60,369 nt of DNA from Gammaproteobacteria bacterium (GTDB lineage: Bacteria > Pseudomonadota > Gammaproteobacteria > Steroidobacterales > UBA11654). A program made the position numbers and the translations under genes. Below are positions 24,477 to 41,289 of this stretch, piece after piece. A model generated the notes under the pieces. It did not search any database. It was not told the origin of the DNA and worked only from the letters and a program-made list of their open reading frames with translations. The stretch is from NCBI GenBank assembly GCA_029242945.1, contig JAQWSZ010000009.1, forward strand, positions 1-60,369, read 5' to 3'. Positions within the stretch are counted from its first letter, which is position 1; every line of letters starts with the position of its first letter.

Positions 24477-25184
24477 ATGATCACAATTGGATATATCTTT
24501 ATAGCATTTCTAGCTGCAGCATGCTTAGTTTATGTTGCAAATGCCTACTTAAAGCAACCCAATAACATACTTCTTTTAATACTTTGTCCAACCTCATTAC
24601 TCTGGTTTGATTCCTTTGTGATCGCGATGGGACAATTTGTGGGTGAAGGCAATCTCCTTTTAGGTGCAACATATATTCGCTACTCAGCGCATTGGTTGAT
24701 GTTGCCACTACTTTTTATAGCATCAGGAATGATTTTGAGAGGGGCGGGTTTTAAATTTGCATCAAATAAATACATTATGGGTCTATTTTATTTTTTGACC
24801 CTGTTTTTTATTATTGAAGACTTTAGGCATATTTTTATTGTAGATTTTTATCCTGCTTGTTATGGCGATACTCTCAGATATGCAACAAAGGTTCCAACCG
24901 GGCAAGCATGTACTACAGGAATGGAAGGCATGGGTATGGGTACATCTCCAGCAGCAGCGATACTCTTGACAGTTATACTTCTGTTATCAGGAATAGCAAT
25001 ATGGATAAAACATAAATGGCCTTGGCTTGCTGTAGGTTGTTCAATTATGTTGCTTGCAGCTCAACCAACGTCAATTGGTCCTATACTTAGCAATGCCGGT
25101 GAGCCAATTTTTACTTTTGCAGTTACACTTGCAGCTATCAAATTTGGAAATAAAAATGAAGAACGAATAGCTTCTAATTCTTGA
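24477..25184 (+). CDS. hypothetical multi-pass membrane protein
   Basis: 235 aa with about 7 hydrophobic segments; no recognised motif. Confidence 0.6.
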   Translation: MITIGYIFIAFLAAACLVYVANAYLKQPNNILLLILCPTSLLWFDSFVIAMGQFVGEGNLLLGATYIRYSAHWLMLPLLFIASGMILRGAGFKFASNKYIMGLFYFLTLFFIIEDFRHIFIVDFYPACYGDTLRYATKVPTGQACTTGMEGMGMGTSPAAAILLTVILLLSGIAIWIKHKWPWLAVGCSIMLLAAQPTSIGPILSNAGEPIFTFAVTLAAIKFGNKNEERIASNS

Positions 25185-25194
25185 ATAATTGAAG

Positions 25195-26424
25195 TCAAAG
25201 ATTGATCGCTTCTCCGATATTAAGTGGCACTATCTCTATCTCTTGATCTTTATTAATTGCCTCCAAACCTTCTGGAATAATTGCCCAAGAATTTGCTTCC
25301 CTGAAAGGGTTCAGTTTGAAGGATTCTTGTCCTTCTAAAATTATGACCTCTAACTTACCTTGATCATTTACTGTTGTTTTTGCTTTAGCAAAAAAACAGA
25401 ACTTTCTTGATTTTTTAAATTCCAATTGATTTACTGCAACTAGATAGTTTTCTTTTGCCTGTCCTTGCATTAATCGTATGGCATTGTTGACAAAAAAACG
25501 AAAGCCGACTGCTACTGATACTGGGTTTCCAGGTAAACCAAAGAGAATTTTTCCATCTGGTAATTTTGCCATTAATATTGGCTTTCCAGGTCTGATCCAG
25601 ACTTTATGGAATAATATTTCTGCACCCATATCAAGTAATACAGATGGCACAAAGTCAGCTTTTCCAGCAGAGACACCACCACTTGTAATAATAATGTCTG
25701 ATCCAGAATCTATACATTTTTTGATTTTATTTTTGATTTCACAAGGGTCATCTTTTGCATGGAGCTGATTGGTGCATTGTAGCCCTAATCTTTTGACGCA
25801 AGCTTCAATATAAGGCCCATTAGTATTGGGTATGCTTGATTCATTATTCCCATCTAATTCACTTCCAGTTGCAATAATGCCAATCTTAGGTGATTGGAAT
25901 ATTTGCACCTTATCAATACCATTCATCAATATTGCCATCAAGTTATATGGGTTGATGGAACTTCCTTTTTCTAAAATAATATCCCCAGGTAAGAAATCTT
26001 CTCCAGCTAGGCGAACATTTCTATCTTTTTTTATTTCTTCGTCAAGAATTAGAAATCTCTTATTATTCTCAGTAATAATTTTGGCTTGCTCTATGGGAAT
26101 GACCGCATCAAAACTTTTGGGCATCAATGCTCCTGTCATGATTTCAAAACTAACATCATTTTCATCCGAAGCAATAAATTTATCTCCAGCGTAGATAGTA
26201 TTTTTAATTTCAAAGCGTTTAGGATTATCTTTTGTTATCTCAATTGTTTCTTTGGTTTGAATTGCTACACCATCCATTGCAGAGTTAGAGAGAGCAGGCA
26301 CAGGCGATTTGGATACTAAGGTTTTTGCATTAATGCCAAAAGCCTGTTTAACATCAGTATCTTTTACTGCTAGCGAAGTCACATTTTTTTCTATAATATT
26401 TAATGCTTCTTTATAATTGATCAT
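25195..26424 (-). CDS. moeA: molybdopterin molybdotransferase
   Basis: NSAMDG, IMTGA.MP, ATGSEL, SGGVSAGKAD, RPGKP, GLPGNPVS. Confidence 0.93.
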   Translation of the reverse strand: MINYKEALNIIEKNVTSLAVKDTDVKQAFGINAKTLVSKSPVPALSNSAMDGVAIQTKETIEITKDNPKRFEIKNTIYAGDKFIASDENDVSFEIMTGALMPKSFDAVIPIEQAKIITENNKRFLILDEEIKKDRNVRLAGEDFLPGDIILEKGSSINPYNLMAILMNGIDKVQIFQSPKIGIIATGSELDGNNESSIPNTNGPYIEACVKRLGLQCTNQLHAKDDPCEIKNKIKKCIDSGSDIIITSGGVSAGKADFVPSVLLDMGAEILFHKVWIRPGKPILMAKLPDGKILFGLPGNPVSVAVGFRFFVNNAIRLMQGQAKENYLVAVNQLEFKKSRKFCFFAKAKTTVNDQGKLEVIILEGQESFKLNPFREANSWAIIPEGLEAINKDQEIEIVPLNIGEAINL

Positions 26425-26551
26425 GATTTATATATATTTTATTTGGAGTCTAAGCTTATTGTGCATTGTTTTAATGAGGGATGGAAAAATTTTTAAATTT
26501 AAAGCATAAGACCTTTTTAAGATAGAATTAATTAATAATTAGGTAACCGTA

Positions 26552-29302
26552 TTGACTAAGATTAATAGAAGAAATTTCTTACAAGGCTCAGCAGCAGCTG
26601 GACTTAGTCTTGGATTGCAATATGGATCTATGGAAAAAACATTTTCAAGCGAAACTTATCGCGGTTTCGAGGATCTCTATAGAAAAAAATGGACTTGGGA
26701 TAGAGTTGTAAGAGGAACGCACGGTACTAACTGTGCTGGCACTTGTGCCTTTAACGTATATATTAAGAATGGTGTTGTTTGGCGAGAAGAGCAACAAGGA
26801 CAATATGAACAATTGGGAGATGTTCCTGACTTTGGACCCAGAGGTTGTCAAAAAGGTATGCGTCATCATAAATATATGTATGGCAAGCAACGCATACTTT
26901 ATCCATTAAAAAGAACTGGTAAAAGAGGTGAAGGTAAGTGGGAAAGGATTAGTTGGGAACAGGCTACCACAGAGATTGCAGATAAGTTTCTTGATTACGC
27001 AATAGAATATAATCCTGAATGTATTTCTTATGGAAGCGGTACACAGATGTCTGTGAAAATGGCTTCCTTTTCTTCACATTTACGATTTGGCAATATTACG
27101 GGTGTTACTGTTCCTGAATTCTTTTCAGGTGTTGGAGATCTTCCCACCGGTTCATATATGACCTTAGGCCAAGTCTACACAGGCGATACATTTGCTTCTG
27201 TGTATAAAGCAAAATGTGTTTTAGTCTGGATGAGTAATCCAGCTGTGACACGAATACCTGATGCACACTTCTTTTGGGAGGCTCGTTATAATGGTACCCA
27301 GGTCATTTCAATTTCTCCTGAATTTACTCCTACAGCAATGCATTCCAGTATGTGGCTCAACCCGAAACCAGGGACAGATGCAGCCCTAGCTATGTCAATG
27401 GTCGGTGTGATGATCGATGAGAAACTCTATCAATCAGATTATATAAAAGAGCAAACTGATTTACCGCTTTTAGTAAGAACTGATACAAAAGAATTTTTAA
27501 GAAGAGAAGATCTATCACTCTATGGTTTACTGGCTGTTGATGATAATGTTTATTATATGTGGGATGAGGAGACAGATGCCATTGTACAGGCACCTGGGAC
27601 AGGGAGAGCTGATAAACCTATGGGGAGAGATAGGCGTAAGCATGGAACATTAGATCTTGGAAACATAAAGCCAATTTTAGAAGGAAGATGGAAGATTAAA
27701 ACATTGGATGGTGAAGTTGAAATCACCACAGTTTTCGAATTATTAAAAGAAGAATGCAAACAGTATACACCTGAAAAATCTTCCGAGATCACTGGGGTTA
27801 ATCCTGGCGTCATCAAAAAAACAGCTCGAGTTTTTGCAGATGCTCAACCAGCCATGATTTATGCAGGCTATGCTTCATGTAAATGGCTTCATGGTGATCT
27901 CTTACAAAGAGCAATGCTATTAATGTTAGCTCTAAGTGGAAGTACGGGTAAAGAAGGTGGCGGGCTACAAATAGCAAATGCACCCGTTTCTAGAGGAATA
28001 AATCAATTTGGTTTTTCTGATATTGGTCCTGCACTTCGACTAATTTCTGCTACCACATGGGATTATGATCACGGGAATATGAAGCAGTTGAATGAGAAGA
28101 TATACGGAAAGGATCTTGCTGAAACATTCGATCAATATTATAAAAAAAGTATCAGCGAAGATTGGTTCCCAGATTACAGCCAAAATGGCTATAAAATGGG
28201 AATATTTGCTGGAAACAATGGAGCCAACTGGAGAGCTACTGGAAGTCATTGGAGAAAAAATGCTTTGGAATCCCTTGAGGTTATTGTTTCGTTGGCACCC
28301 GACATGGGAATAACAGCACTTACCTCAGATTATGTTTTGCCAATAGCTCATCACTACGAAAGAAATGATTTAATGTTGCAATCAAGAGTGCCTTACTTGC
28401 AGGTCCTTAATGAAGCAGTGAGACCACTCGGTGAATCTGTAGATGACTGGGAAGCAAACAGGAGACTGGCTGAAGCTATCAGCATTAGAGCTAAAGAAAG
28501 AGGTATAAGGCCAATTAGAGATGTGGTTGATGGAAGGACGGTTAGAAGAGATTACACCAAGACGCTAGAGTTATATACAATGAATGGAAGACTTAAAAAT
28601 TCAACCGATGTTGCTCAATTTATCATCAATACTAGTCATGGACTTCCAAAAATTTCATTTGAAGAGTTATCCGAAAAAGGTATTGTTAGAGTGGATGGTT
28701 CGGATAACACAATGTGGGATAATGAGGACTCACCTTACCATACTGAAGTAGCAAAGAGTGTTAGAGACAAACATCCCTATGAAACATTTACAGGCAGGCA
28801 ACAGTTTTATATTGATCACGAATGGTTTATTGAATTTGAAGAGACGTTACCAACCTATAAGGAGCCTCTTGAAATCAAAGATTTTCCTATGAGAATGATG
28901 ATGGGACATGCACGTCATGGTATCCATAGTATGTGGAGGGATGACTCTTTACTTTTAAGTTTGCAGCGAGGCGAACCTGATATTTATATTAATCCAGATG
29001 ATGCAAAAGCAAGAGATGTTCTTGATGGAGACATGGTGAGAGTATTTAATATAGCAGGTGAATTTTTTGCTATGGCGCATGTCAGTTCATCGATCCAGCC
29101 TGGTATGCTCTTTATGTACCATGGATGGGATCCTAAATTATTTCAAAATGGGAAAAATTTTGGTGAAGTTATTCCAACTGGGGGATTGATTAAGCCCACT
29201 TCAATGGCCGGAGATTATGGGCATTTAGGTTATCAACCACTTGCATTCGCACCCAATCAAACTTATAAAGATTTTACTTGTGATTTTGAAAAATCAGCAT
29301 GA
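26552..29302 (+). CDS. type II DMSO-reductase-family Mo-bisMGD enzyme, alpha subunit (EbdA/S25dA-like), Tat-exported
   Basis: RRNFLQ Tat motif; EDLYRKKWTWD; FS0 motif HGTNCAGTC...PRGCQKG; candidate Mo-ligand Asp in VGDLPTG; TRIPDAHF..EARYNG; HARHGIHS; TTG start. Confidence 0.9.
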   Translation: MTKINRRNFLQGSAAAGLSLGLQYGSMEKTFSSETYRGFEDLYRKKWTWDRVVRGTHGTNCAGTCAFNVYIKNGVVWREEQQGQYEQLGDVPDFGPRGCQKGMRHHKYMYGKQRILYPLKRTGKRGEGKWERISWEQATTEIADKFLDYAIEYNPECISYGSGTQMSVKMASFSSHLRFGNITGVTVPEFFSGVGDLPTGSYMTLGQVYTGDTFASVYKAKCVLVWMSNPAVTRIPDAHFFWEARYNGTQVISISPEFTPTAMHSSMWLNPKPGTDAALAMSMVGVMIDEKLYQSDYIKEQTDLPLLVRTDTKEFLRREDLSLYGLLAVDDNVYYMWDEETDAIVQAPGTGRADKPMGRDRRKHGTLDLGNIKPILEGRWKIKTLDGEVEITTVFELLKEECKQYTPEKSSEITGVNPGVIKKTARVFADAQPAMIYAGYASCKWLHGDLLQRAMLLMLALSGSTGKEGGGLQIANAPVSRGINQFGFSDIGPALRLISATTWDYDHGNMKQLNEKIYGKDLAETFDQYYKKSISEDWFPDYSQNGYKMGIFAGNNGANWRATGSHWRKNALESLEVIVSLAPDMGITALTSDYVLPIAHHYERNDLMLQSRVPYLQVLNEAVRPLGESVDDWEANRRLAEAISIRAKERGIRPIRDVVDGRTVRRDYTKTLELYTMNGRLKNSTDVAQFIINTSHGLPKISFEELSEKGIVRVDGSDNTMWDNEDSPYHTEVAKSVRDKHPYETFTGRQQFYIDHEWFIEFEETLPTYKEPLEIKDFPMRMMMGHARHGIHSMWRDDSLLLSLQRGEPDIYINPDDAKARDVLDGDMVRVFNIAGEFFAMAHVSSSIQPGMLFMYHGWDPKLFQNGKNFGEVIPTGGLIKPTSMAGDYGHLGYQPLAFAPNQTYKDFTCDFEKSA

Positions 29303-29976
29303 ATGATTTATCGACAGCAATCAATTACGAAAGAGTATGCGATCAATCTTTAAGAAAAGTAGAAGAAACCGCTAAACCCAGAAGTAATCTATATACTTAT
29401 TTTTCTCTTTTGTTGGGTTCACCTCATGAATTAGTATTAGAATCTAAGATAAAATTCAATGACTCAATTTTGAAAGGGTTGCCGTATACTTTTGAAATCA
29501 GTGACTTAATTAAGGAATATAGTGAGACTGAAATCATTGATTTGAAGCGTCAGTATAGTGCTTTATTTGAAGTAGGCGATGAAGGGCCTCCAGCGCCAAT
29601 CAGAGAAGATCTATTTCTATCACAACCAGCAAAATTAAGAGAAGATTTGGTGCGTTTTTATGATTATTTTGGATACACTTTAAACGATGAGTTTCAATGG
29701 CAGATGGACCATCTGTCGATTGAGATTGAATTCATGCATTTTCTTATTTTTCAAGAACTAGAGTCAAACGATAATAAATTATCATTCCAGCTTGGCCAGT
29801 TAGATTTTTCAGAGAAGCATCTAGTGAATTGGATACCTGACTTGTCTGCTACAATTAATCGTCTAGGCAGTGGTGATATCTATTCTAAAATTGTTGTAGA
29901 ATTAAACAACTTTCTTTTAATCGATAATAATTGGCAAAAAGAAACAATTAATAGTATTCATAAAACGGGGAGTTAA
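29299..29976 (+). CDS. TorD/DmsD/EbdD-family Mo-enzyme maturation chaperone
   Basis: REDLVRFYDYFG, DHLSIEIEFM, F.EKHL.NW; ATGA overlap with the alpha gene. Confidence 0.85.
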   Translation: MNDLSTAINYERVCDQSLRKVEETAKPRSNLYTYFSLLLGSPHELVLESKIKFNDSILKGLPYTFEISDLIKEYSETEIIDLKRQYSALFEVGDEGPPAPIREDLFLSQPAKLREDLVRFYDYFGYTLNDEFQWQMDHLSIEIEFMHFLIFQELESNDNKLSFQLGQLDFSEKHLVNWIPDLSATINRLGSGDIYSKIVVELNNFLLIDNNWQKETINSIHKTGS

Positions 29977-29978
29977 GT

Positions 29979-30974
29979 ATGGGTCAAGTTGCAATGGTGA
30001 TTGATTTAAATAAGTGTATAGGTTGCCAAACCTGCACTACTGCTTGCAAGTCTTTATGGACAGATGAACCTGGTCAAGAATATATGCTCTGGAATAATGT
30101 TGAAACTAAGCCTGGTCCTGGGTATCCACGTTATTGGGAAGAAGGAGGAGGAGGTTGGGATGAACAAGGCAATCTCAATCGAGATGGTCTGATGCCTAAG
30201 AAGGAAGATCATGGTGGAGAAGTTCCTTTGAATCATGATGAAGTGTATTTCAAGGGCCTTGAGGTAAGATTGCAACAAGAAGAGCCCATGGCTAAAGGTA
30301 AGGGTGCAAATTGGGATGAAGATACAAGTTCAGGAGATTACCCTAATAATTACCATTTCTATTTACCAAGAATGTGTAATCATTGTACTAAGCCAGCATG
30401 TCTAGAAGCTTGTCCTGTAAGAGCTATTTATAAAAGAGAAGAAGATGGGGTTGTGCTTATTGATCAGGATAAATGTCAAGGCATTAGAGAATGCAATAAA
30501 GCATGTCCTTACGACAAAATATACTTTAATTATGTCACTGGAAAATCTCAGAAATGCATTTTTTGTTTTCCTAGATTGGAAGAAGGAGTCGCACCAGCGT
30601 GTGCAAGACAGTGTCCAGGAAGATTAAGATTTGTTGGTTATCTTGAAGATGAAAATGGACCAATCAATGAATTAGTTTATCAATGGAAGGTTGCTCTGCC
30701 TTTACATCCAGAATATGGAACCGATCCTAATGTTTTTTATGTACCTCCAATGTTGCCTCCAACGTTTGATGAAAAAGGTGAATTTGCTGATGAGCCTCGA
30801 GTTCCAACGGAATATCTTAGAAGTCTTTTCGGAGAAAATGTTGATGAAGCATTGATTACGATGCAGTATGAGATGGAGAAAAAACAAGAAGGTAAAGAAT
30901 CTAGATTAATGGATATCTTAATAGCAAAAGAATGGAAATCATTGTTCAGCATTCCTGATGTGAAGATTTATTAA
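29979..30974 (+). CDS. type II DMSO-reductase-family Fe-S beta subunit (EbdB/NarH-like)
   Basis: DLNKCIGCQTCTTACK, RMCNHC..PAC..ACP, KCQGIRECNKACPY (3Fe-4S type), KCIFC...CARQCPGR, LHPEYGT.PNVFYVPP. Confidence 0.92.
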   Translation: MGQVAMVIDLNKCIGCQTCTTACKSLWTDEPGQEYMLWNNVETKPGPGYPRYWEEGGGGWDEQGNLNRDGLMPKKEDHGGEVPLNHDEVYFKGLEVRLQQEEPMAKGKGANWDEDTSSGDYPNNYHFYLPRMCNHCTKPACLEACPVRAIYKREEDGVVLIDQDKCQGIRECNKACPYDKIYFNYVTGKSQKCIFCFPRLEEGVAPACARQCPGRLRFVGYLEDENGPINELVYQWKVALPLHPEYGTDPNVFYVPPMLPPTFDEKGEFADEPRVPTEYLRSLFGENVDEALITMQYEMEKKQEGKESRLMDILIAKEWKSLFSIPDVKIY

Positions 30975-31003
30975 TTAGTGAATAACTCTTAAGGAAACTT
31001 CAA

Positions 31004-32968
31004 ATGGAGCTTTCAAAAGGCCGAATTTTTTTAATTATGACATCGCTGGTCTTGTCTTCAGTAATGGCAAGTCTAGACTCGAGTTTTACTCCCATTGCCA
31101 TCCCAGACATGATCGATAAACTTGACTCAAGCACCAGTGAGGTGGTTTGGGTTGCCCTGGGATACTTAATTGCTGCAAGTGGACCAATGTTACTAGCTGC
31201 AAAAATGGCAGATGGTATTGGCCATGCAAGATTTTTCCAGATAGGTACATTGATTTATAGTCTTGCAATGATTGCATGTGCCTGGGCTCCTGATGCAAAC
31301 ACACTTATTGCAATCCGCTTTATCCAAGGTTTTGGTATGGCCTTATTTTTACCCACTACATTTGCAATTGCTACTGCCATGTATGGGCCAGAGAAAAGAG
31401 GAAGCGCACTTGGAATTCTTCAAGCAGCCAATGCAGTTGGCTTTGTTATGGGACCTGTTTTTGCTGGCTGGTTAATTGATGCTTATGATTGGACAGCAAT
31501 ATTCTGGTCTCGCATACCTTTCGCTATTCTGGCTATTTTATTGGCTTTTTTTGCCCTTGGTTTTAAGCATCCTTTTCAGTTCTCTGAAAGAAAGAAGACA
31601 TACGATTATCTTGGAGCAGTTTATTTAACGGTTGCATTATTTGGCATACTTTATGGATGTAATAAATTGCCAGTAGAGGATAATCATCTAGATCTTTCAA
31701 CTTGGATTATATTTGCACTTGGTTTTATTTTTTTTGTTTTCTTTATCAAACAGGAAAGCAAGCATAGTGATCCATTAATTGATCTGACTCTTTTTTCAAA
31801 TAGTAATGATTTTTCAAAAGCTTCAATAGCTTTTGCCTCTGTTTTTGCTAGTTTTCCTGTCTACCTTTTTATACTCCCAATTATTATGATTAGTGGTCTA
31901 GAGATGAAAGCTTGGGATGCAGGCCTTGCTTTAGGCTTGGCAGCTTTAGCAACTTTGCTAATTAGTCCAGTTGCTGGAAATCAGTCTGATAAAATTGGAC
32001 CTGGTAAATTATGTATGATGGGTGCTTTAATTACTGCTATCGGCTATCTTTGTCTTTTTCTAGTATCAGCTGATTCAACGGTGTTTTCAATATTGCCAGC
32101 TATGGCATTAATTGGAGCTGGAACAGGTTTATTCTTTTCTCCTAATAATAATTTAATGTTATCGAGCGCTCCTCCAGAAAGGGCAGGAATGGTGTCCGGA
32201 CTTTTTGGTGTTCTAAGACAATCAGGTTATGCTCTAGGCTTTGCTATTACTGCCAGTCTTTTTACTGCTATTCAAAATTATTTTGATCTTCAATGGGCTT
32301 ATTCTTCAATAGATCCCATGTCTCAAAGCTCAGCGTTAAGCATTACTGATATCTATCATCAAGGCAGTCAATGGTCTCCTGAAATGCTTGTTTTTATTTT
32401 GCATATTGGGGTTTTATTGTGCACAAGTATACTTATTATTACATTCATTAATTCACTACCGAAAATTCAACTCAATATTGCTAAACATTCTCTTATAGTT
32501 GCTTCTTCACTGCTTATTGCTTTTCTATCCATCGCTGTATTTAGTTTAAATGCACCTGGCTATCTTAAGAAAGATGACCTCTCAGCAAATCTTACTAATA
32601 ATGATAAAAATCCAATCAGTCCTTTTGGAATGTCATCCAGATCATTCAAAATTATCACCACTGCCAATGCTGAAAAAAATGATCAAACTGACAACAATAC
32701 AAGCAATGTTAATTATGACAGTCGATGTGTTTTTTGTCATGGTTCTAATTTGGAGGGTATACCCGGTTTAGGAGTCTCTATCAAAGACTCTATGTTTCTA
32801 AAGAAAATGAATGTAGATGAAATTATAATTTTTTTAAAAGAAGGGCGAATGTCTAATTCTACTGATAGCATATCTGGCGGCGTAATGCCTGGTTTTTCAT
32901 GGTTGCCTGATGAAGAGATTAAAGACATTGCAGTTTTTATAAAATCGGCTAGCAGTAACTCTGAATGA
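31004..32968 (+). CDS. DHA2-type MFS transporter fused to a C-terminal class I cytochrome c domain
   Basis: 14 MFS helices (RFIQGFG, GPVFAG, PLIDL.LF), an extra helix, an Asn/Asp-rich linker, then CVFCH (32726-32740) and GGVMPGF...EEIKDIAVFI. Confidence 0.85.
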   Translation: MELSKGRIFLIMTSLVLSSVMASLDSSFTPIAIPDMIDKLDSSTSEVVWVALGYLIAASGPMLLAAKMADGIGHARFFQIGTLIYSLAMIACAWAPDANTLIAIRFIQGFGMALFLPTTFAIATAMYGPEKRGSALGILQAANAVGFVMGPVFAGWLIDAYDWTAIFWSRIPFAILAILLAFFALGFKHPFQFSERKKTYDYLGAVYLTVALFGILYGCNKLPVEDNHLDLSTWIIFALGFIFFVFFIKQESKHSDPLIDLTLFSNSNDFSKASIAFASVFASFPVYLFILPIIMISGLEMKAWDAGLALGLAALATLLISPVAGNQSDKIGPGKLCMMGALITAIGYLCLFLVSADSTVFSILPAMALIGAGTGLFFSPNNNLMLSSAPPERAGMVSGLFGVLRQSGYALGFAITASLFTAIQNYFDLQWAYSSIDPMSQSSALSITDIYHQGSQWSPEMLVFILHIGVLLCTSILIITFINSLPKIQLNIAKHSLIVASSLLIAFLSIAVFSLNAPGYLKKDDLSANLTNNDKNPISPFGMSSRSFKIITTANAEKNDQTDNNTSNVNYDSRCVFCHGSNLEGIPGLGVSIKDSMFLKKMNVDEIIIFLKEGRMSNSTDSISGGVMPGFSWLPDEEIKDIAVFIKSASSNSE

Positions 32969-34281
32969 GCCTTATTTCTGTTGAGAATAAACCCAGTGCA
33001 TTATCGGCATGGTATGCAGTCATCGTATTGCTATTTGCCTACGTTTTATCGTTTGTAGATAGAATAATTATGAGTCTTCTTGTGATTCCTATTCAAAAAG
33101 ATTTAGATATTTCAGATACTCAGATGGGACTTCTTATGGGCCTTGCTTTTGCAATATTTTATACTGTAGTAGGTATACCAATAGCTAGATTATCTGATGT
33201 AAAAAGTAGGAAAATTATTGTCTCTATAGGTATTTTTCTATGGAGTATTATGACAGCTGTTTGCGGGCTTGCTAGAAGCTTTTTGGAGTTATTTTTAGCA
33301 AGAATAGGAGTTGGTGTGGGTGAAGCAACACTCTCACCGGCGGCTTATTCTATGATTGCTGACTATTTTCCTGAAAATAAGTTAGGCAAAGCCATTGCCG
33401 TTTATCAGTCTGGAGCACTCTTTGGTAGCGGTATTGCCTTTATTATTGGAGGAGCGATTGTTGGTTTGATTGTCAATTCCAGTGCTACATCATTGCCTTT
33501 CTTAGGAGAGCTTCAACCTTGGCAATTGGCATTCATTATAGTAGGACTTCCTGGTGTTTTAATGGCTCTTGTAATGTTAAGTGTGAAGGAGCCCAAAAGA
33601 ACAGGAATTAAAAAGGATCTTGGGACATCGGTTACTATAAAAGATGCAGTCAGATATATGGTTAAAAATTCGAAAGTGTATCTTTCAGTTTTTATAGGAT
33701 TCAGTATGCTTGCAATTCCTATTACGACTATTTTTACTTGGTATCCAACTTATCTACAAAGAATTCATGATCTTACAATAGGCGAGAGTGGAAAAATACT
33801 AGGATTAATTCTATTTTTTCTTTCAAGTTCAGGAGTCTTTTTTGGTGGTTGGTTAGTTGATTTTTTAAAACGAAGAAATTATCAAGATAGTTTTTTTCGA
33901 GTGGGTTTGATTGCAGCAATCACTCCAGTACCGTTTACTCTTTTTGTGTCATCAATGTCAGATATAGATGCTACGATAATCCTATTGTGCCCATTTATTT
34001 TCCTTGCCAGTATGCCTCTTGCTATTGGTCCAATTGTACTTCAAATTATTTCACCTAATCAATTGAGAGCACAAACAGGTGCAATTTATATGTTATTTAT
34101 GAATTTATTGACAGCAGCTATTGCTACTTCAGGGATTGGTTTTATTACCGATTATATTTTTGAAAATCCTTTAGATGTGGGGCAGTCTATTATGATTGTT
34201 AATATTGTTTCTGCCCCTGTTGCTTTTTTGGCTCTATCTTATGGTTTATTTCATTACAACAAAACATTAACAAAAGAGTAA
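32965..34281 (+). CDS. MFS transporter, spinster-like
   Basis: SFVDR.I.SLLV.PI..DL.ISDTQ.GLL.G.AF, RIGVGVGEA.LSP.AYS.IADYFP; ATGA overlap with the upstream gene. Confidence 0.9.
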   Translation: MSLISVENKPSALSAWYAVIVLLFAYVLSFVDRIIMSLLVIPIQKDLDISDTQMGLLMGLAFAIFYTVVGIPIARLSDVKSRKIIVSIGIFLWSIMTAVCGLARSFLELFLARIGVGVGEATLSPAAYSMIADYFPENKLGKAIAVYQSGALFGSGIAFIIGGAIVGLIVNSSATSLPFLGELQPWQLAFIIVGLPGVLMALVMLSVKEPKRTGIKKDLGTSVTIKDAVRYMVKNSKVYLSVFIGFSMLAIPITTIFTWYPTYLQRIHDLTIGESGKILGLILFFLSSSGVFFGGWLVDFLKRRNYQDSFFRVGLIAAITPVPFTLFVSSMSDIDATIILLCPFIFLASMPLAIGPIVLQIISPNQLRAQTGAIYMLFMNLLTAAIATSGIGFITDYIFENPLDVGQSIMIVNIVSAPVAFLALSYGLFHYNKTLTKE

Positions 34282-34357
34282 ATATCTACTATGATTAATG
34301 GCTAGCCTTTAAAGAAATTGAGCGGGCTTAATAATAACGAAAGAGGAGATTTTGAAT

Positions 34358-34990
34358 ATGTCAGATGAATCAACACAAGAAAACTATGCTGGTGTTTGGG
34401 ACACAGGTCTAGGTTTTGGGAAAAAGTCAGCACTTATTGTTATAGATCTATTGCAAGGTTATACGACCGAGGGTTCTGCATTGTATGCACCAGGAGTCAT
34501 CGATTGTGTAGCACAGATGCCAGACATATTAGCTTTAGCAAGATCTAAAGAGGTTCCAGTCATACATACAAGAGTTTTGTATACACCACCTGATTATCCA
34601 GAAGGCGGTATTTGGATTAAAAAAGCCCCTGTACTCAAAGATCTTGTTTTGGGTAATCCTTATGCAGAGTTTTGTGAAGGCGTCGAACCTGCTGAAGGTG
34701 AACTAGTAATTGTTAAGCAATATGCCAGTGCCTTTTTTGGAACTTCATTGGTTGCAACACTAAATGGATTAGATGTTGACACACTTATTATTACAGGCTG
34801 CACAACTTCTGGTTGCATTAGAGCTACAGCTGTTGATTGCGTTCAACATGGATTTAGACCCATTTGTGTAAGAGAGTGTATCGGAGATAGGGCTGAGGGA
34901 CCGCATGAAGCTAATTTATTTGACATCAATGCCAAGTATGGAGATGTAATAGGTAAGGATGTAGCAATGGATTATCTCAATAATTTATAA
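34358..34990 (+). CDS. isochorismatase-family cysteine hydrolase (N-carbamoylsarcosine/maleamate amidase-like)
   Basis: LIVID, KQYASAFFGT, GCTTSGCIRATAVD (Asp-Lys-Cys triad), KYGDV; GAGGAG RBS. Confidence 0.9.
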   Translation: MSDESTQENYAGVWDTGLGFGKKSALIVIDLLQGYTTEGSALYAPGVIDCVAQMPDILALARSKEVPVIHTRVLYTPPDYPEGGIWIKKAPVLKDLVLGNPYAEFCEGVEPAEGELVIVKQYASAFFGTSLVATLNGLDVDTLIITGCTTSGCIRATAVDCVQHGFRPICVRECIGDRAEGPHEANLFDINAKYGDVIGKDVAMDYLNNL

Positions 34991-35025
34991 ACTGTTTTTA
35001 ATTAATTAAGTAAGAGGAATTTAGA

Positions 35026-35949
35026 ATGAGCGATTTAACACAAAGTAAACATTATGATTATATTCCGATCATCGATCGTGAACCTTTCAAGTTGCCTGAT
35101 GGGGCAAGAGTTGCAGTGATGCCTTATCTTAATATTGAGCATTTTCCAGCAGCAATAGCTGGAACATCCTTAATACCTGGCACAGCTGGTTTTTCTCCAG
35201 ATCCTTTAAATTATGGTTGGAGAGACTATGGCAATAGAGTAGGGTTATGGAGAATGAAAGAACTTATGGATAAACTGGGGATGAGAGCAACGGTTTGCTT
35301 AAATTCAGAAATTATTAGAGAGTATCCTAGAATTGTTGAAGAAGCATTAGCCAGTAATTGGGCTTTTATTGGTCATGGTATCAATAATGCACCAGCAAAT
35401 TTTATTGGAAATGCTCCTGATGGCCAAGGAGGCCATACTCCATTAAGTGAAGATAGGGAAAGAGAAATTATTAGCACGGTTTGTAATTCAATGGAAGAAG
35501 CCATTGGAAGGAAAACAAAGGGTTGGTTAAGTCCTTTTTTAACACACACCGATAATACCCCCAGAATTCTTGAAGAAAATGGGGTTGAATATTTATGTGA
35601 TTACACAGCTGATGATCATCCTTTTAAGTTTAATACACCAAATAACAACCTCATTGCAGTTCCTTATACAGTTGAATTGAACGATATACCTGCTTTCCTA
35701 GGACACTCCGGAGTTGGTGTTTCTTCTGAAGCTTTTGGAGATATGATCGTTGACCAGTTTGATGTTCTTTATGAAGAAGGTGCTACCAATGCTAGATGTA
35801 TGCCAATTTGTTTGCATACCTTTCATGTTGGTCAGCCTAATAAATTCAAACATCTGAAAAGAGCCTTTGAATATATTGCTAGCCATGATGATGTATTGCT
35901 TACAACCGGCGATGACATCAATGATTGGTATAGAGCACAATATATGTAA
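35026..35949 (+). CDS. polysaccharide-deacetylase-fold hydrolase, PuuE allantoinase-like
   Basis: NIEHF, RDYGNRVG.WR, GHG, GWLSP, DDHP, PYTVELND, LH.FHVGQP. Confidence 0.85.
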   Translation: MSDLTQSKHYDYIPIIDREPFKLPDGARVAVMPYLNIEHFPAAIAGTSLIPGTAGFSPDPLNYGWRDYGNRVGLWRMKELMDKLGMRATVCLNSEIIREYPRIVEEALASNWAFIGHGINNAPANFIGNAPDGQGGHTPLSEDREREIISTVCNSMEEAIGRKTKGWLSPFLTHTDNTPRILEENGVEYLCDYTADDHPFKFNTPNNNLIAVPYTVELNDIPAFLGHSGVGVSSEAFGDMIVDQFDVLYEEGATNARCMPICLHTFHVGQPNKFKHLKRAFEYIASHDDVLLTTGDDINDWYRAQYM

Positions 35950-36025
35950 ACAAAAAAGTCCAAGTTTATTTGGACTTAGTACAATAAACATGGGTAGTTT
36001 ATAGACTACCCATGAAAAAAAACCC

Positions 36026-37297
36026 ATGAAAAATAAGCTTCTTTATTTAACTGTCATGATCTGCTTGGTATTCAGTAATGAGTATCTGTTAAGTCAGCCT
36101 ATGCCGCCAAAATTACCCGATGTGGGACCAACGGTCATGAGATTACCAACATTACTTAAACAATCACCCATTAATTTAAAAGTACCAAAAGGTTTTAAAG
36201 TAGATCTACTTGTAGATAACTTGAGTTCACCAAGATGGTTGCTAGTGCTTCCTAATGACAATATTTTGGTAGCACAATCAAGAACAGAATCGTTACCAGG
36301 TTTGCCTCTTGAGACATTGAAGATACTATCAAAAATGAATCTTTTTGGCCCTTCACCTAATAATATAATAGAAGTCAATTATAGCGAAGGCAAGTATCAG
36401 TCAAAATCTATAATCACTGACTTAAACCAACCTTTTGGAATGATTTATTTTCAAGAACATCTCTATATTGCTAATACCGATTCAATTTTAAAATTTGATT
36501 ATGAAGATTTTAAGATTAACTCAGCACCTCAGAAAATTATAGATATACCAGCAGGACCTCCTAATAATCATTGGACTCGAAATATTATCTTAAATAAAGA
36601 TTTTGATAAAATATTAATCTCAGTTGGTTCTGGAACGAATGTAAATGAAGAAGGAACGGATAATAATGAACGTGCATCCATCTGGGAAATAAATCTAGAT
36701 GGAACTGGAAAAAAATTGTTTGCAACTGGACTCAGAAATCCAGTAGGAATGGCCTTTGAACCAATTAGTGAAAAGCTTTGGACAACAGTGAATGAAAGAG
36801 ATGGGTTGGGCGAATTTTTGCCACCTGATTATTTCACTGAAGTGGTTGAAGGTGAATTCTATGGTTGGCCATATGTTTATTATGGAATTTATCCTGACCC
36901 AAGTCAGTTAAAACTCAACCCCTTAAAAGTAGAAAAAGCACTAACACATTCAAGAGTACCAGATTTACCTGTGGGTTCTCATACGGTTCCTTTGGGCTTG
37001 TTGTTTCATAGTGGAAAAAATATTAACCCTAAATACAAAAATGGAGCTTTTATTGCAAGGAGGGGTGGCGTTTCTACATCCAAGTTAGTTGGATACGATG
37101 TTATATTTATACCGTTTGAAGATGGTTATCCCACAGGAGAGATAGAGGTTTTTCTTTCAGGTTTTATTGCCGATATGGCCAAAGGGGAAATTCATGGTAG
37201 GCCTGTTGGTATAACCGAAATGAATGATGGCTCTATTCTTATTGCAGATGATGTAGGCGGGAAAATATGGCGTATTAGCTATAGTGAAGACAATTAA
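36026..37297 (+). CDS. PQQ-dependent sugar/sorbosone dehydrogenase family protein
   Basis: Signal peptide; VPKGF, NNHWTR, SVGS..N, GLRNPVG, VNERD.LG, YGWPY, GRPVG, ADD.GG.IWR. Confidence 0.88.
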   Translation: MKNKLLYLTVMICLVFSNEYLLSQPMPPKLPDVGPTVMRLPTLLKQSPINLKVPKGFKVDLLVDNLSSPRWLLVLPNDNILVAQSRTESLPGLPLETLKILSKMNLFGPSPNNIIEVNYSEGKYQSKSIITDLNQPFGMIYFQEHLYIANTDSILKFDYEDFKINSAPQKIIDIPAGPPNNHWTRNIILNKDFDKILISVGSGTNVNEEGTDNNERASIWEINLDGTGKKLFATGLRNPVGMAFEPISEKLWTTVNERDGLGEFLPPDYFTEVVEGEFYGWPYVYYGIYPDPSQLKLNPLKVEKALTHSRVPDLPVGSHTVPLGLLFHSGKNINPKYKNGAFIARRGGVSTSKLVGYDVIFIPFEDGYPTGEIEVFLSGFIADMAKGEIHGRPVGITEMNDGSILIADDVGGKIWRISYSEDN

Positions 37298-38444
37298 GAC
37301 CAATCTACTAATAGCAGGAGGCGGACTCGCTTCTTGCATACTCGCTTATAGAATTAAATCATTGTCATCTGATATCGATTTTTTAGTAGTTGAGAAAGAT
37401 CATCAGTTGGGAGGTAATCATAATTGGTCCTTTCACACCACCGATATTAGTAATTCTCAATTTGAATGGCTCTCCCCTTTAATAACCTTTCGTTGGAATG
37501 AACACGATGTTGTTTTTCCCCAGTACTCTAGAACTATTAAGGGAGGATATAACACTATTACTTCCATCGATATGCATGAAAAATTGATGCCTCTCATTGG
37601 CAATCATGTTCTTTTTGATAACGCTATCAATTATTTAGATAATAAAGTAGCAAAGCTGGATGATGGCACAGTAATTGAAGCGGATATAGTTATCGATGCA
37701 ATGGGCAACTCACCTTCTAAAGGTATTACTATTGCGTATCAAAAATTTTTAGGAATTGAGATTGAGCTAAATAAAACTCATAACATAGAAAGACCTATAT
37801 TGATGGATGCTGCAGTTGAGCAAATTGATGGTTACCGATTTATGTATACGCTACCTTTTTCTGAAAAGAAATTATTAGTCGAGGACACAAGATACAGCGA
37901 TAGTTCGCAAATAAACGAAGAAGAATACCAAGCTCAGATTATGAAGTATCTTGATATGAAAGGCTGGCAAGACTGTAAAATTATAAAAAAAGAAAAAGGA
38001 GTGCTGCCCATCATCTTGAATGGTAATTATTCTAATGTGTTTAATAAGGAAATTGGAATGATTGGAATGAAAGCACTCTTATGTCATCCAACGACAGGTT
38101 ACTCATTGCCTCATGCTGTTAAGATTGCTGATCTTATTTCCAGTAAAATTTACAATAAAAGTAATAAGATTAATGATGATATTAAGCAATATTCAATCCA
38201 ATCATGGAAAAAAGACGAATTTTTTAGAGTATTAAATAGAATGCTCTTTTGGGCATGCGAGCCTAGCTCTAGATATAAAGTCTTCCAGCGTTTTTATACA
38301 TTACCTGAATCTTTGATAGCTAAGTTTTATTCCAGAGAGTATTTATTTATCGAGAAAATAAAAATGATGATTGGAATGATGGATGGCTTTAAGCCACCCA
38401 TAAAAATTAGTAAAGCACTAAAGGCATTATATAGGAATGAATAA
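37284..38444 (+). CDS. crtY: lycopene beta-cyclase
   Basis: GGGLA, GGNHNWSFH, QKFLG.E, LMDA.V.Q.DGYRF.Y.LP, EDTRYS, HPTTGYSLP, LNRMLF. Confidence 0.92.
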   Translation: MKTIKTNLLIAGGGLASCILAYRIKSLSSDIDFLVVEKDHQLGGNHNWSFHTTDISNSQFEWLSPLITFRWNEHDVVFPQYSRTIKGGYNTITSIDMHEKLMPLIGNHVLFDNAINYLDNKVAKLDDGTVIEADIVIDAMGNSPSKGITIAYQKFLGIEIELNKTHNIERPILMDAAVEQIDGYRFMYTLPFSEKKLLVEDTRYSDSSQINEEEYQAQIMKYLDMKGWQDCKIIKKEKGVLPIILNGNYSNVFNKEIGMIGMKALLCHPTTGYSLPHAVKIADLISSKIYNKSNKINDDIKQYSIQSWKKDEFFRVLNRMLFWACEPSSRYKVFQRFYTLPESLIAKFYSREYLFIEKIKMMIGMMDGFKPPIKISKALKALYRNE

Positions 38445-39927
38445 GAAGGTTGCTATTATAGGAAGCGGGTTTGGTGGTTTGGCACTAGCTATCAGGCTTC
38501 AAGCTTCAGGTCTGGATACTGTAATTTATGAAAAGAGGGATAAACCAGGAGGCAGAGCATATTTTTACAAAGAAAAGGGTTTCCATTTCGATGCTGGACC
38601 TACAGTTATTACAGCGCCTCATATTTTTCAAGAGCTCTTTGATTTAACCAATAAAAAAATGCAAGACTACATAGAGCTTATTCCAATTGATCCTTTCTAT
38701 CGATTGATTTGGCCTGATGGCGAAGTGTTTAATTATAACTCTGATATGGATGAACTAAATTCTCAAATCCATAAACTGAATCCAAAAGATGTTTATGGTT
38801 ATAAGAAATTTTTAAAATATTCAAATGCAGTCTTCGAGGAAGGCTATATAAAAATGGTTGATCACCCATTTCAATCCATCTGGAGCATGATTAAAGTTGC
38901 CCCTCAATTGATTCTTCTGCAAAGCTTTAGATCAGTCTATTCAATGGTGTCTAAATATATTAAGCATCCAAAACTAAGACAAGCTTTCAGTTACCACACT
39001 TTATTATTAGGTGGCAGCCCTTATTCTAGCTCTGCTATTTATTCTTTGATTCATGCACTAGAGCATAAGTGGGGAGTATGGTTTTCAAAAGGAGGAACAA
39101 GCACACTCATTGCAGGCTTGACTCAGTTATATAAAGATTTGGGCGGCACTTTACATCTCAATTGTGAAGTAAAAAGTATTAAGACAAATAAAAATAATGA
39201 AATACAATCTATTATTATTCACAATGGAGAAGAAATTAAGGTGTCTGCTGTAGCAAGCAACGCTGATATCTACCACACTTATAATGAATTGCTTTCTGAG
39301 AATAAAATAGCTCAGAGGAAAACAAAGATACTAAAGAGAAAAAAATTTAGCCCTTCTCTATTTGTGTTGCATTTTGGTCTACGAAAAAAACATCCAAAGC
39401 TAGCACATCACACAATATTCTTTGGTCCGAGATGGAAAGAATTACTCAAGGATATATATAAGAATGGGGTCTTACCCGAGGATAACGCCCTTTATTTGCA
39501 CTCGCCTTCAGTGACTGATTCTTCTATGGCACCTGAGGGTTGTTCAACTTATTACGCTCTTGCCGTTGTTCCTAATTTAGGTAAATTAGATATTGATTGG
39601 TCAATGGAACAGGACAGATATAAGAATATTATCTATCAACAGCTTGAGGAGACTTGTTTGCCTAATTTGAGAGAGGACCTAGTTGTAGATCGAGTCTTTA
39701 CACCTTTTGATTTTAAAAAAGAGCTCAATGCTTATAAAGGCGCCGCCTTTTCCATGGAACCTTTACTTGTTCAAAGTGCTTATTTTAGAATACATAATAG
39801 TGATCAGAAAATTAAAGGTCTCTATTTTACAGGAGCTGGCACACATCCGGGTGCAGGAGTTCCTGGAGTGGTTAATTCTGCGAAAGCCACTGCAAAAATC
39901 ATAATGGACAGGTTAGATCATGGATAA
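38437..39927 (+). CDS. crtI: phytoene desaturase
   Basis: GSGFGGLA, RDKPGGRAY, FDAGPTVIT, GAGTHPGAGVPGVV.SAK. Confidence 0.95.
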   Translation: MNKKVAIIGSGFGGLALAIRLQASGLDTVIYEKRDKPGGRAYFYKEKGFHFDAGPTVITAPHIFQELFDLTNKKMQDYIELIPIDPFYRLIWPDGEVFNYNSDMDELNSQIHKLNPKDVYGYKKFLKYSNAVFEEGYIKMVDHPFQSIWSMIKVAPQLILLQSFRSVYSMVSKYIKHPKLRQAFSYHTLLLGGSPYSSSAIYSLIHALEHKWGVWFSKGGTSTLIAGLTQLYKDLGGTLHLNCEVKSIKTNKNNEIQSIIIHNGEEIKVSAVASNADIYHTYNELLSENKIAQRKTKILKRKKFSPSLFVLHFGLRKKHPKLAHHTIFFGPRWKELLKDIYKNGVLPEDNALYLHSPSVTDSSMAPEGCSTYYALAVVPNLGKLDIDWSMEQDRYKNIIYQQLEETCLPNLREDLVVDRVFTPFDFKKELNAYKGAAFSMEPLLVQSAYFRIHNSDQKIKGLYFTGAGTHPGAGVPGVVNSAKATAKIIMDRLDHG

Positions 39928-40852
39928 AGTGCTTTCGCATAGTGCTGCAATGATCAGAGAGGGTTCCAAGAGTTTTTCAGGAGCATCTAAGCTTCTTGAT
40001 TCAAGCAGCAAAGAGTCTGCAATATTATTGTATTCCTGGTGTCGTTACTGCGACGATCAAATTGATAATCAAATTCTAGGTATCAATCAACAGAGTAATG
40101 AAGATAATTTGGATGCAGTTGAGATTGTTAAAATAATGGAGAAGAAAACTCAGGATGCTATCAATGATATCCCATCAGAAGCAATTGAATTTGAAGCATT
40201 AAGAAGAGTGCTTCAAAAACATGGTATTCCACAGCAATACCCATTGGAGCATTTGCAAGGTTTCAGAATGGATGCAAAGAAAAAGCAATATCATAGCATT
40301 ACAGACACACTTGAATATTGTTACCATGTTGCAGGTGTAGTAGGAATAATGATGGCTTATATTTTTGGTATAAGGGATTCAAAGATAATAGAAAGAGCAG
40401 CAGATTTGGGTATTGCTTTTCAACTCACTAATATTGCAAGAGATGTTATTGAGGATGCCAAAATGGGAAGAGTCTATCTACCAAGCGAATGGCTAGCAGA
40501 GTATGATATAAAGCCTGGGTCAATTCTAGAAACTAACAATAGAGTGAAGCTTTTTCTAGTTATCAAAAAGCTTTTGGATGTATCAGAACAATATTATGAA
40601 TCTGCAAACATTGGAATCACCCATCTACCATTGAGAATAAGATGGGGGATTAAAGTGGCTTTATCGGTATATCGACAAATAGGCATTAAGATTAGAACAT
40701 TGGGTTCCAATGCATGGAATCAGAGGGTTTATGTAAAACGTCCTTATAAACTATTTTTAGCAGTGAAGTATTTTTTAAGATATTACTTATGGAATAAAAA
40801 CAACACTGCACAAGAGCTAGAAAGAGATCCTTTACTTTGGAAAAAAAACTAA
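39920..40852 (+). CDS. crtB: phytoene synthase
   Basis: GSKSF, WCRYCDDQID, YCYHVAGVVG, AFQLTNIARD..ED...GRVYLP. Confidence 0.95.
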   Translation: MDKVLSHSAAMIREGSKSFSGASKLLDSSSKESAILLYSWCRYCDDQIDNQILGINQQSNEDNLDAVEIVKIMEKKTQDAINDIPSEAIEFEALRRVLQKHGIPQQYPLEHLQGFRMDAKKKQYHSITDTLEYCYHVAGVVGIMMAYIFGIRDSKIIERAADLGIAFQLTNIARDVIEDAKMGRVYLPSEWLAEYDIKPGSILETNNRVKLFLVIKKLLDVSEQYYESANIGITHLPLRIRWGIKVALSVYRQIGIKIRTLGSNAWNQRVYVKRPYKLFLAVKYFLRYYLWNKNNTAQELERDPLLWKKN

Positions 40853-41289
40853 ACCCCTAATTTCAAGTCTTTTGGTACATAGAGGAAGCCAAATGAAGAT
40901 GCAAAATTTTTTTCAGACGTAGAGTGATGAAGATGATGAGCACGAATCATTCTTTTCATATAACGACTCTTGAATTTATATTTAATTTTAATTCTTCGAT
41001 GTACGATTATATCGTGAAAGATAAAATATGCAGGACAGTAAGAGGCAATACCAACACCGACCCAAAGTAGAGCTGTATCATTATGATAGCCAAAATAAAT
41101 ACAGAGTATCGAAGGGATAGCAAATAAGACTGCAAACCAATCATTCTTTTCAAACATACCTTCTCTAGGCCTATGATGTGATTTATGCAGATTCCATAAA
41201 AATCCATGCATAACATACTTATGTGTATAGAACGCAACTGCTTCCATTATGCAAAAAACAGTAAGGATAATTAAACAGTTTAAAAACAT
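40849..41289 (-). CDS. crtZ: beta-carotene 3-hydroxylase
   Basis: HKYVMHG, HKSHH, FEKND, FHD..VH.R, AHHLHH, SFGFL His boxes; convergent with crtB. Confidence 0.93.
   Translation of the reverse strand: MFLNCLIILTVFCIMEAVAFYTHKYVMHGFLWNLHKSHHRPREGMFEKNDWFAVLFAIPSILCIYFGYHNDTALLWVGVGIASYCPAYFIFHDIIVHRRIKIKYKFKSRYMKRMIRAHHLHHSTSEKNFASSFGFLYVPKDLKLGV

Follow-up and report, generated by a model that had tools for sequence, protein, structure and literature searches.

Type II enzymes within the dimethyl sulfoxide (DMSO) reductase family are three-subunit complexes whose known gamma subunits carry haem b, and PcrC of the Pcr system is a multihaem protein. A union of a transporter of the major facilitator superfamily (MFS) with a redox domain has been described for MamZ of magnetotactic bacteria, which in the available part of the source is an MFS protein C-terminally fused to a YedZ-like domain and proposed to form an oxidoreductase-and-transport complex (PMC3905215). 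Here we analyse a gammaproteobacterial stretch of 60,369 nucleotides (contig JAQWSZ010000009.1 of assembly GCA_029242945.1; Steroidobacterales, UBA11654), referred to below as the window, in which a gene directly downstream of molybdoenzyme genes encodes a DHA2-type MFS transporter fused, through a 15th membrane helix and a linker, to a mono-haem class I cytochrome c. Comparisons of sequence and gene order suggest, with a probability that we put at about 0.55, that the cytochrome domain replaces the gamma subunit as electron partner of the molybdoenzyme and that the MFS part carries an organic substrate or product.

The 654-residue fusion protein is encoded by a single unbroken open reading frame (ORF) at 31004-32968 on the forward strand, the opposite strand of which holds many stops and no competing ORF. 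Pfam places MFS_1 at residues 15-412 (E 6.7e-52) and Cytochrom_C (PF00034) at residues 571-649 (26.5 bits vs the gathering score of 21.3), while the NCBIfam model TIGR00711 (DHA2) covers the N-terminal 450 residues and passes its cut-off narrowly (232 vs 230.2 bits); PF13442 scored 23.2, under its threshold of 27. MFS and cytochrome c families were the only ones found in this Pfam scan, which returned neither a YedZ-like ferric-reductase domain nor a match to EB_dh (PF09459). The haem-binding motif CVFCH occupies residues 575-579 (C575-x-x-C578-H579; 32726-32740), M628, the predicted distal haem ligand about 50 residues further on, lies within GGVMPGF (codon at 32885-32887), and residues 495-515 form a hydrophobic stretch. 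An AlphaFold2 (AF2) model built from a 20-sequence alignment (mean predicted local distance difference test, pLDDT, 78.7; predicted template modelling score, pTM, 0.74) places 14 membrane helices before residue 484 and one more at 492-514 (pLDDT of about 90), followed by a disordered linker at 528-565 (pLDDT <50) and a small helical C-terminal domain with its last helix at 636-651. The best solved relatives of the MFS core are QacA (138.6 bits; the 14-helix protein aligns across residues 11-427) and EmrB (113 bits), with EfpA also near; in the PDB the best matches that the cytochrome domain finds are weak, to CcoP and to the cytochrome c part of nitrite reductase 2zoo (20.3 bits). Pfam (with MFS_1 plus Cytochrom_C), NCBIfam, the AF2 model and the translation thus confirm the architecture read from the letters alone in a first-pass annotation of the window.

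MFS proteins usually start with the N-terminus inside. With the N-terminus taken as cytoplasmic and helix limits drawn from the AF2 model, each of the 20 aligned proteins had 16-24 lysine plus arginine residues on “in” loops vs 3-6 on “out” ones, and the loop between helices 14 and 15 had on average 2.8 lysine plus arginine and 0.1 aspartate plus glutamate residues. This positive loop, together with the additional helix, predicts a periplasmic cytochrome domain (N-in, C-out), which is where the CxxCH domain had been placed before. The DHA2 trait of two cytoplasmic termini does not apply to the fusion, as helix 492-514 flips its C-terminus. The Ccm system attaches haem on the periplasmic side, and a profile search found CcmE in the genome of the window (111.9 bits); covalent attachment of haem c to the CxxCH motif, with maturation by Ccm, would be consistent with these features.

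The fusion is genuine, under selection and widespread. When 5.8 billion proteins were searched by a word index, 943 matches were returned, and nearly all of the best 120 were 630-680 residues long and covered 96-100% of the query, at identities down to 46%; the protein clusters behind the matches hold hundreds of member sequences. Their source annotations (“MFS transporter”, “EmrB/QacA subfamily drug resistance transporter”, “DHA2 efflux permease”) hide the redox domain. When one genome per prokaryotic species was scanned, 66 loci were returned, 64 of which hold the fusion, the other two (L075 and L076) being distant Bacillus-type MFS genes. Exactly one CxxCH is present at the haem site in all 56 loci with sequence reaching it, the remaining 8 of the 64 being cut by contig ends or represented by a fragment, and a linker motif, PFG[MWFL], is present in 37 of these 56. 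Throughout an alignment of 20 homologues (45-92% identity), C575, C578, H579, M628 and P629 are invariant, as are F541 and G542 of the linker. Of 20 genomes in the window's own family, 17 carry the fusion; the other three (60-84% complete) have neither it nor the beta gene, and the adjacency of the two genes makes these absences one observation.

Because the same architecture is found in independent loci, chance or misassembly is ruled out, and it is scarcely conceivable that a frameshift or a wrong join has merged two genes here. One reading frame recurs in loci of independent assemblies, a DNA contig spans the domain junction (32353-33400) with zero insertions or deletions, none were seen in contigs aligned over 31459-33400, and at least 98% of sampled words are present in 14 marine DNA runs from 9 studies, though this DNA may itself derive from some of them. 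The first-pass annotation had argued from topology for a selected rather than an accidental fusion, a view now carried by the haem site kept in all 56 loci that reach it and by haem-site residues that are invariant down to 45% identity. Contigs from RNA libraries (at least 99% identity) cover 32410-32680 and 32730-32880 and leave 31772-32356 uncovered, and the beta-to-fusion junction (30723-31161) is bridged by contigs from three metatranscriptome libraries of three studies; these RNA-library contigs are compatible with transcription, with DNA carry-over being possible in such libraries.

Two of the loci have an unusual structure. L071 (G016:C5:102440-104363) is a second copy of the fusion in a same-genus genome and consists of three pieces (residues 7-204, 171-481 and 482-651), the last of which is only 48% identical and the others 80-81%; loss of function, recombination or a chimeric assembly could account for it. 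In L014 (10001-12372, corresponding to G019:C37:10552-12531), the frame continues for at least 128 residues beyond the cytochrome domain, to the contig end, with a resemblance to the N-terminus of a metal-dependent amidohydrolase (HDIHVHP). This extension, seen in 1 of the 64 loci, reflects either a fusion of three parts or the loss of a stop in a metagenome-assembled genome (MAG).

A gene for the beta subunit lies at most 400 nucleotides upstream on the same strand in 43 of the 64 loci, or 44 with the fragmented copy L071, the distance from the beta stop to the start of the fusion alignment being 14-145 nucleotides in the 37 loci measured. In the window the fusion begins 30 nucleotides after beta and is preceded by an AAGGAA box. 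Sixteen loci have an upstream neighbour other than the molybdoenzyme operon, L025 and L056 have too little upstream sequence for the neighbour to be judged, alpha is directly upstream in L043 with no delta or beta between, and alpha and delta are directly upstream in L060 with no beta. The last two are MAG contigs from Alphaproteobacteria, and L043 shares its genome with a further locus, L064, where beta precedes the fusion. Beta-linked loci are distributed over Gamma- and Alphaproteobacteria, Fidelibacterota (Marinimicrobia), Bacteroidota, Acidobacteriota and Myxococcota, and the distant lineages retain alpha subunits 63-69% and beta subunits 67-76% identical to those of the window. When the genes after beta were surveyed in 300 scored Gammaproteobacteria genomes, the window's own genome was the only one to match at E<=1e-120.

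The enzyme itself appears to be a divergent clade within type II of the DMSO reductase family, on the side of Pcr, Ser, Clr, Ddh and Ebd. Among solved relatives of alpha, PcrA (4ydd/5e7o) scores 582 bits, EbdA 415, NarG 299 and the anammox NxrA 146. An identity as Nitrotoga-type nitrite oxidoreductase (PMC6050957) was dropped, as alpha is much nearer to PcrA and EbdA than to NarG and NxrA. Its N-terminus carries the twin-arginine motif NRRNFL, with a TAT_signal detected. The operon has no gene for a gamma subunit, and PF09459 had no match across the window's genome, which is 91.7% complete. One haem-copper oxidase (COX1) and cytochrome c1 are encoded in this genome, so that a cytochrome c-dependent aerobic chain exists. 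Structure prediction for beta with fusion residues 520-654 gave 0.00 in both runs and speaks neither for nor against binding.

A second alpha gene is found in the same genome (G000:C27:48644-51370, reverse strand, corresponding to L077:6630-9386, reverse strand). Its 918-residue product is 55% identical to the first and has a twin-arginine motif of its own, SRRNFL; no beta or delta gene is adjacent, the neighbours being an amidohydrolase with a signal-peptide-like start and genes of the DSBA-like, AMP-dependent ligase, Amidohydro_2, cupin, MFS and CN-hydrolase types. It may borrow beta and the fusion from the operon of the window.

In sixteen loci the fusion is not linked to the molybdoenzyme operon. 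In a quick maximum-likelihood tree of 52 full-length proteins (midpoint root; L014 and L065 dropped for odd length), the 12 included proteins from such loci form one clade with a Shimodaira-Hasegawa-like approximate likelihood ratio test (SH-aLRT) support of 100, which under this root is sister to the window's clade and branches from within beta-linked sequences. In all 16 loci the fusion is directly preceded by a gene for a conserved multi-helix protein of about 220 residues (e.g. L033:9287-9949 and L029:9333-9992, both on the forward strand; these two products are 56% identical), to which neither Pfam nor NCBIfam assigns a family. For this protein a look-alike search with a language model points to clusters with a CopD domain or DUF2269, which is a lead only, and weak homologues occur in the genome of the window (C34:7-510 and L077:13847-14521).

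All five genomes of this unlinked clade that were examined have the molybdoenzyme, with two beta genes elsewhere in each, and one beta copy per genome sits in an orthologous operon of moeA and alpha-delta-beta, its alpha being 66-72% identical. In three of the five (L084, L087 and L092) the gene right after beta encodes a cytochrome c with 39-43% identity to the fused domain; that of L092 (9212-9550, forward strand) is a 112-residue ORF whose N-terminus resembles a signal peptide. The remaining two genomes showed no cytochrome up to 1.5 kb from beta. Thus the cytochrome module fills the position after beta whether fused or not, which is the strongest evidence presented here for a role as redox partner. 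Conversely, the fusion has stayed whole at sites outside the operon, from which it can be argued that transporter and haem share a joint function. Behind the cytochrome gene of L092 come genes for a rhomboid-like protein, for a protein 52% identical to the second MFS of the window and for a TonB-dependent receptor. The unlinked-clade genomes also have the 55% alpha paralogue, there with a beta of its own.

A HMMER search with the C-terminal 170 residues against 1.84 billion representatives returned 534 matches, mostly generic mono- to multi-haem cytochromes c. Three candidates for stand-alone cytochromes (P0243, P0253 and P0324) were rejected as fragments of fusion proteins starting inside transmembrane helix 14 (TM14). 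P0260 (178 residues) is alone among these matches in looking truly stand-alone: it is of the lipoprotein type, with a signal ending in LTAC, and carries PFGFASR followed by a cytochrome c domain, so that the linker motif goes along with the cytochrome rather than the transporter.

The MFS half is the best conserved region of the protein, with a mean pairwise identity among the 20 aligned sequences of 61.6% (residues 8-480); the cytochrome domain reaches 41.4%, and helix 15 and the linker each reach 26%. Motifs A (AD-x-x-G-H/Q-x-R, 69-76), B (R105-x-x-Q-G) and C (G146-F-x-x-G150-P151-x-F-A-G155) are present in all 20, the consensus of antiporter motif C being of the G-x3-G-P-x2-G-G type, and the intramembrane residues D25, R105, R405 and Q406 are invariant. 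D25 aligns with D34 of QacA, while the acidic positions in TM13 of QacA correspond to G402 and Q406, beside the invariant R405; we take both D34 and the TM13 acids to be functional in QacA. Retention of the first and replacement of the others suggest a proton-coupled carrier with a cavity that is not for cationic drugs. Periplasmic loops with conserved acidic residues (LPVEDNH, 222-228, and loop 13-14 with a mean of 5.5 aspartate or glutamate residues) are candidate docking sites. With its motifs intact and its conservation the highest in the protein, the MFS part is not a mere anchor, and it is probably a working carrier for an organic substrate or product of the enzyme.

We propose that alpha, the delta chaperone, beta and the fusion, as last structural gene, form a four-gene cassette. 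In the arrangement that we infer for electron transfer between beta and the haem, for its direction and for the cargo of the MFS, delta would mature the alpha-beta unit, the twin-arginine translocation (TAT) pathway would export it, and the cytochrome domain of the fusion would hold it at the membrane. Electrons would pass from the molybdenum site through the iron-sulfur (Fe-S) clusters in alpha and beta to haem c on its tether and, if the enzyme is a dehydrogenase or hydroxylase, on to the cytochrome c pool and the haem-copper oxidase; a reverse flow, from the bc1 complex, would be less likely. The former direction is favoured as His/Met class I cytochromes are usually high-potential and a cytochrome c oxidase is present in the genome. 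The cytochrome domain would therefore act as a gamma subunit while being unrelated to gamma by descent, and the flexible linker of about 55 residues would keep oxidation and transport together at the membrane. The putative role of the haem domain as partner of the molybdoenzyme is well supported by comparative genomics, through synteny, the missing gamma gene and the stand-alone cytochromes after beta; the suggestion that it might be an electron acceptor for the adjacent enzyme, made at first sight of the sequence, fits all three. A tentative extension, to which we give distinctly less credence, is that the gamma-less molybdoenzyme docks on the transporter via its cytochrome c, with conversion, electron delivery and transport in one “oxidise-and-carry” metabolon, where the redox state of the haem may also control the carrier.

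Several observations weigh against this proposal. The Pfam match of the cytochrome domain is weak (E 1.6e-5), and the PFG[MWFL] motif of the linker is absent in 19 of the 56 loci. The fusion is found away from the molybdoenzyme operon in 16 of 64 loci, a monophyletic clade, and where a separate cytochrome c follows beta (3 of 5 unlinked genomes), the fused haem need not serve the enzyme. The nearest solved relatives of the MFS part (QacA, EmrB and EfpA) are exporters, which fits poorly with a model of import after oxidation. Finally, genes beyond the four-gene core vary among phyla (TonB-dependent receptors and MarR regulators in L046 and L047, MobA/MobB in L041, a Crp-family regulator in L048), so that the context does not reveal the substrate.

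One rival explanation is a transporter that is controlled or driven by its haem according to the state of the cytochrome c pool, the linkage to the molybdoenzyme then reflecting co-regulation only. The fusion is kept whole in the unlinked clade, its MFS core is conserved above the cytochrome domain and its acidic periplasmic loops are retained, which speaks for such a device. Yet beta is immediately upstream in 44 of 64 loci from six phyla, homologues of the domain follow beta without a transporter, and all five unlinked-clade genomes examined keep the enzyme; we also know of no precedent for haem-gated MFS transport, and regard this explanation as unlikely. A different division of labour, in which the cytochrome serves the molybdoenzyme and the MFS part is an uncoupled efflux pump, for example for a toxic product, draws on the multidrug or lipid exporters among the nearest solved relatives, on the retained DHA2 motif C and TM1 aspartate, and on the low identity of TM15 and linker (26%), as for a passive tether. 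Against two independent functions, the fusion has been kept in at least six phyla, and no close unfused MFS homologue above about 45% identity is seen in the best 120 of the 943 matches, barring shorter entries (one, P0068, carries the label partial, and truncation is presumed for the rest). Moreover, the replacement of the QacA TM13 acids by the invariant R405 and Q406 points to a cavity that is not of the cationic-drug type, and we consider an unrelated pump to be improbable.

The MFS core may alternatively have lost transport and merely tether the cytochrome in the manner of the single helix of cytochrome cy, since a TM helix, a flexible linker and a class I cytochrome c form the same layout, as described in the available part of PMC7876108. 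A membrane anchor had been offered in the first-pass annotation as one of two roles, and taken alone it leaves the top conservation of the MFS core unexplained: a tether does not require 61.6% identity, invariance of D25, R105, R405 and Q406, or the preservation of motifs A, B and C from phylum to phylum. A single helix would suffice, and the lipoprotein-type P0260 and the soluble cytochrome of L092 represent simpler solutions, so that we think an anchor without transport very improbable. A cytochrome in the position of gamma, on a working carrier, is the reading that we prefer.

The features of the locus are listed in Table 1. The second MFS gene has a start codon that overlaps the stop codon of the fusion (ATGA) and, like moeA, is syntenic in Woeseia-like loci; moeA scored 263.7 bits with NF007960, under the cut-off of 440. 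For alpha, the alignment to PcrA extends over residues 35-909. The second MFS, the isochorismatase-like and the PuuE-like genes hint at an amide-bearing organic compound, in a context that is limited to the Woeseia-like clade. Predicted promoters and terminators in 25000-38000 were about as numerous as in shuffled sequences (52 vs 46.4±7 and 14 vs 8.2±2.9, respectively). Just downstream of the operon is a carotenoid cluster with lycopene cyclase (37284-38444), a phytoene desaturase-type amine oxidase (38437-39927) and phytoene synthase (39920-40852), ended by a gene of the fatty-acid-hydroxylase family on the reverse strand (40849-41289). A PQQ-dependent dehydrogenase of 673 residues is encoded within 42427-44448 (Pfam PQQ, E 4.6e-207).

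Table 1. Genes of the molybdoenzyme locus and parts of the fusion protein, with positions in the window
Feature	Coordinates	Strand	Basis or remark
moeA, molybdopterin molybdotransferase, divergent from operon	25195..26424	-	Pfam MoeA_N, MoCF_biosynth, MoeA_C
alpha, molybdopterin subunit, TAT signal	26552..29302	+	TIGR03479 900.8 bits, under cut-off 984.75
delta, NarJ/TorD-type chaperone	29299..29976	+	Pfam Nitrate_red_del; TIGR03482 89 bits, under cut-off 152
beta, four-cluster Fe-S subunit	29979..30974	+	TIGR03478 505.8 bits, above cut-off 480.7
Fusion: MFS core, 14-helix DHA2-type, residues 1-483	31004..32452	+	Pfam, NCBIfam, AF2; QacA, EmrB relatives
Fusion: 15th TM helix, predicted in-to-out, residues 492-514	32477..32545	+	AF2 helix, charge of 14-15 loop
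Fusion: Asn/Asp-rich flexible linker, residues 515-568; P-F-G-M motif 540-543 (32621-32632)	32546..32707	+	pLDDT
Fusion: mono-haem class I cytochrome c domain, residues 569-654	32708..32965	+	PF00034
Second MFS, anion:cation symporter type	32965..34281	+	Pfam MFS_1; TIGR00893 140.6 bits, under cut-off
Isochorismatase-like hydrolase	34352-34990	+	kept only in Woeseia-like clade
PuuE-like polysaccharide deacetylase	35026-35949	+	kept only in Woeseia-like clade
GSDH-like beta-propeller	36026-37297	+	kept only in Woeseia-like clade

Compared with described proteins, the fusion combines elements that are individually familiar. QacA and EmrB share its 14-helix core and motif C, to which it adds the 15th helix and the cytochrome domain. 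PuuD, an integral-membrane cytochrome c urate oxidase, and the copper nitrite reductase 2zoo have, as far as the available parts of their sources describe them, a c-type cytochrome fused to the protein it serves; unlike in the fusion, their partner domains are not secondary transporters. The earlier statement that no characterised secondary transporter is known to carry a covalent haem domain is to be qualified by MamZ, an MFS protein with a haem-type redox domain that is not a c-type cytochrome (PMC3905215, available part). MamZ differs in having a YedZ-like ferric-reductase membrane domain, a 12-helix MFS and a magnetosome context. PMC3475470 describes no MFS-cytochrome fusion; “fused” refers to QcrC there. 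Full-text literature, with few subscription journals covered, yielded no description of an MFS-cytochrome c fusion or of this enzyme.

In Rhodobacter cytochrome cy, a TM anchor and a long flexible linker carry a class I cytochrome c, an electron shuttle at the membrane surface, according to the available part of PMC7876108. The likeness seen to the fusion is in layout; the fusion is anchored by the 15th helix of a complete MFS protein, and the weak PDB match of the cytochrome domain to the CcoP-cytochrome cy chimera 6xkx runs through the CcoP part. On the side of the enzyme, PcrA of PcrAB (4ydd, 5e7o) is the best solved relative of alpha, and the aspartate ligand of molybdenum is aligned in GD(L/H)PTG. 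The F-Y-D-W-Y stretch of PcrA is F-F-S-G-V in alpha, which has no tryptophan at the position occupied by W in 4ydd and E in 5e7o and which we take to be that of the substrate-gate residue W461, so that perchlorate is not implied as the substrate. If the coupling is real, the operon would also offer a handle for finding the substrate of an uncharacterised molybdoenzyme that is kept by streamlined marine genomes of 1.5 Mb.

The closest functional counterparts of the cytochrome module are the gamma subunits EbdC, SerC, ClrC and DdhC (EB_dh, PF09459), and by its gene context the module appears gamma-like in function while lying outside the EB_dh family. Both would serve as the third redox component after alpha (molybdenum, FS0) and beta, in the periplasm and with one haem. 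Unlike the gamma subunits, the fusion has a predicted covalent c-type haem in a non-homologous class I cytochrome c fold, mounted on a 15-helix transporter. The clade is wide in phylogeny and abundant in the environment, and would have a cytochrome c in place of gamma, within the transporter polypeptide in most lineages. If the docked complex is true, the fusion would be the first secondary transporter that bears a covalent haem and is an integral part of a molybdoenzyme, respiratory or catabolic, and it would be frequent in pelagic marine bacteria; if the coupling is real, it would also be a new way of connecting periplasmic catalysis, respiration and transport.

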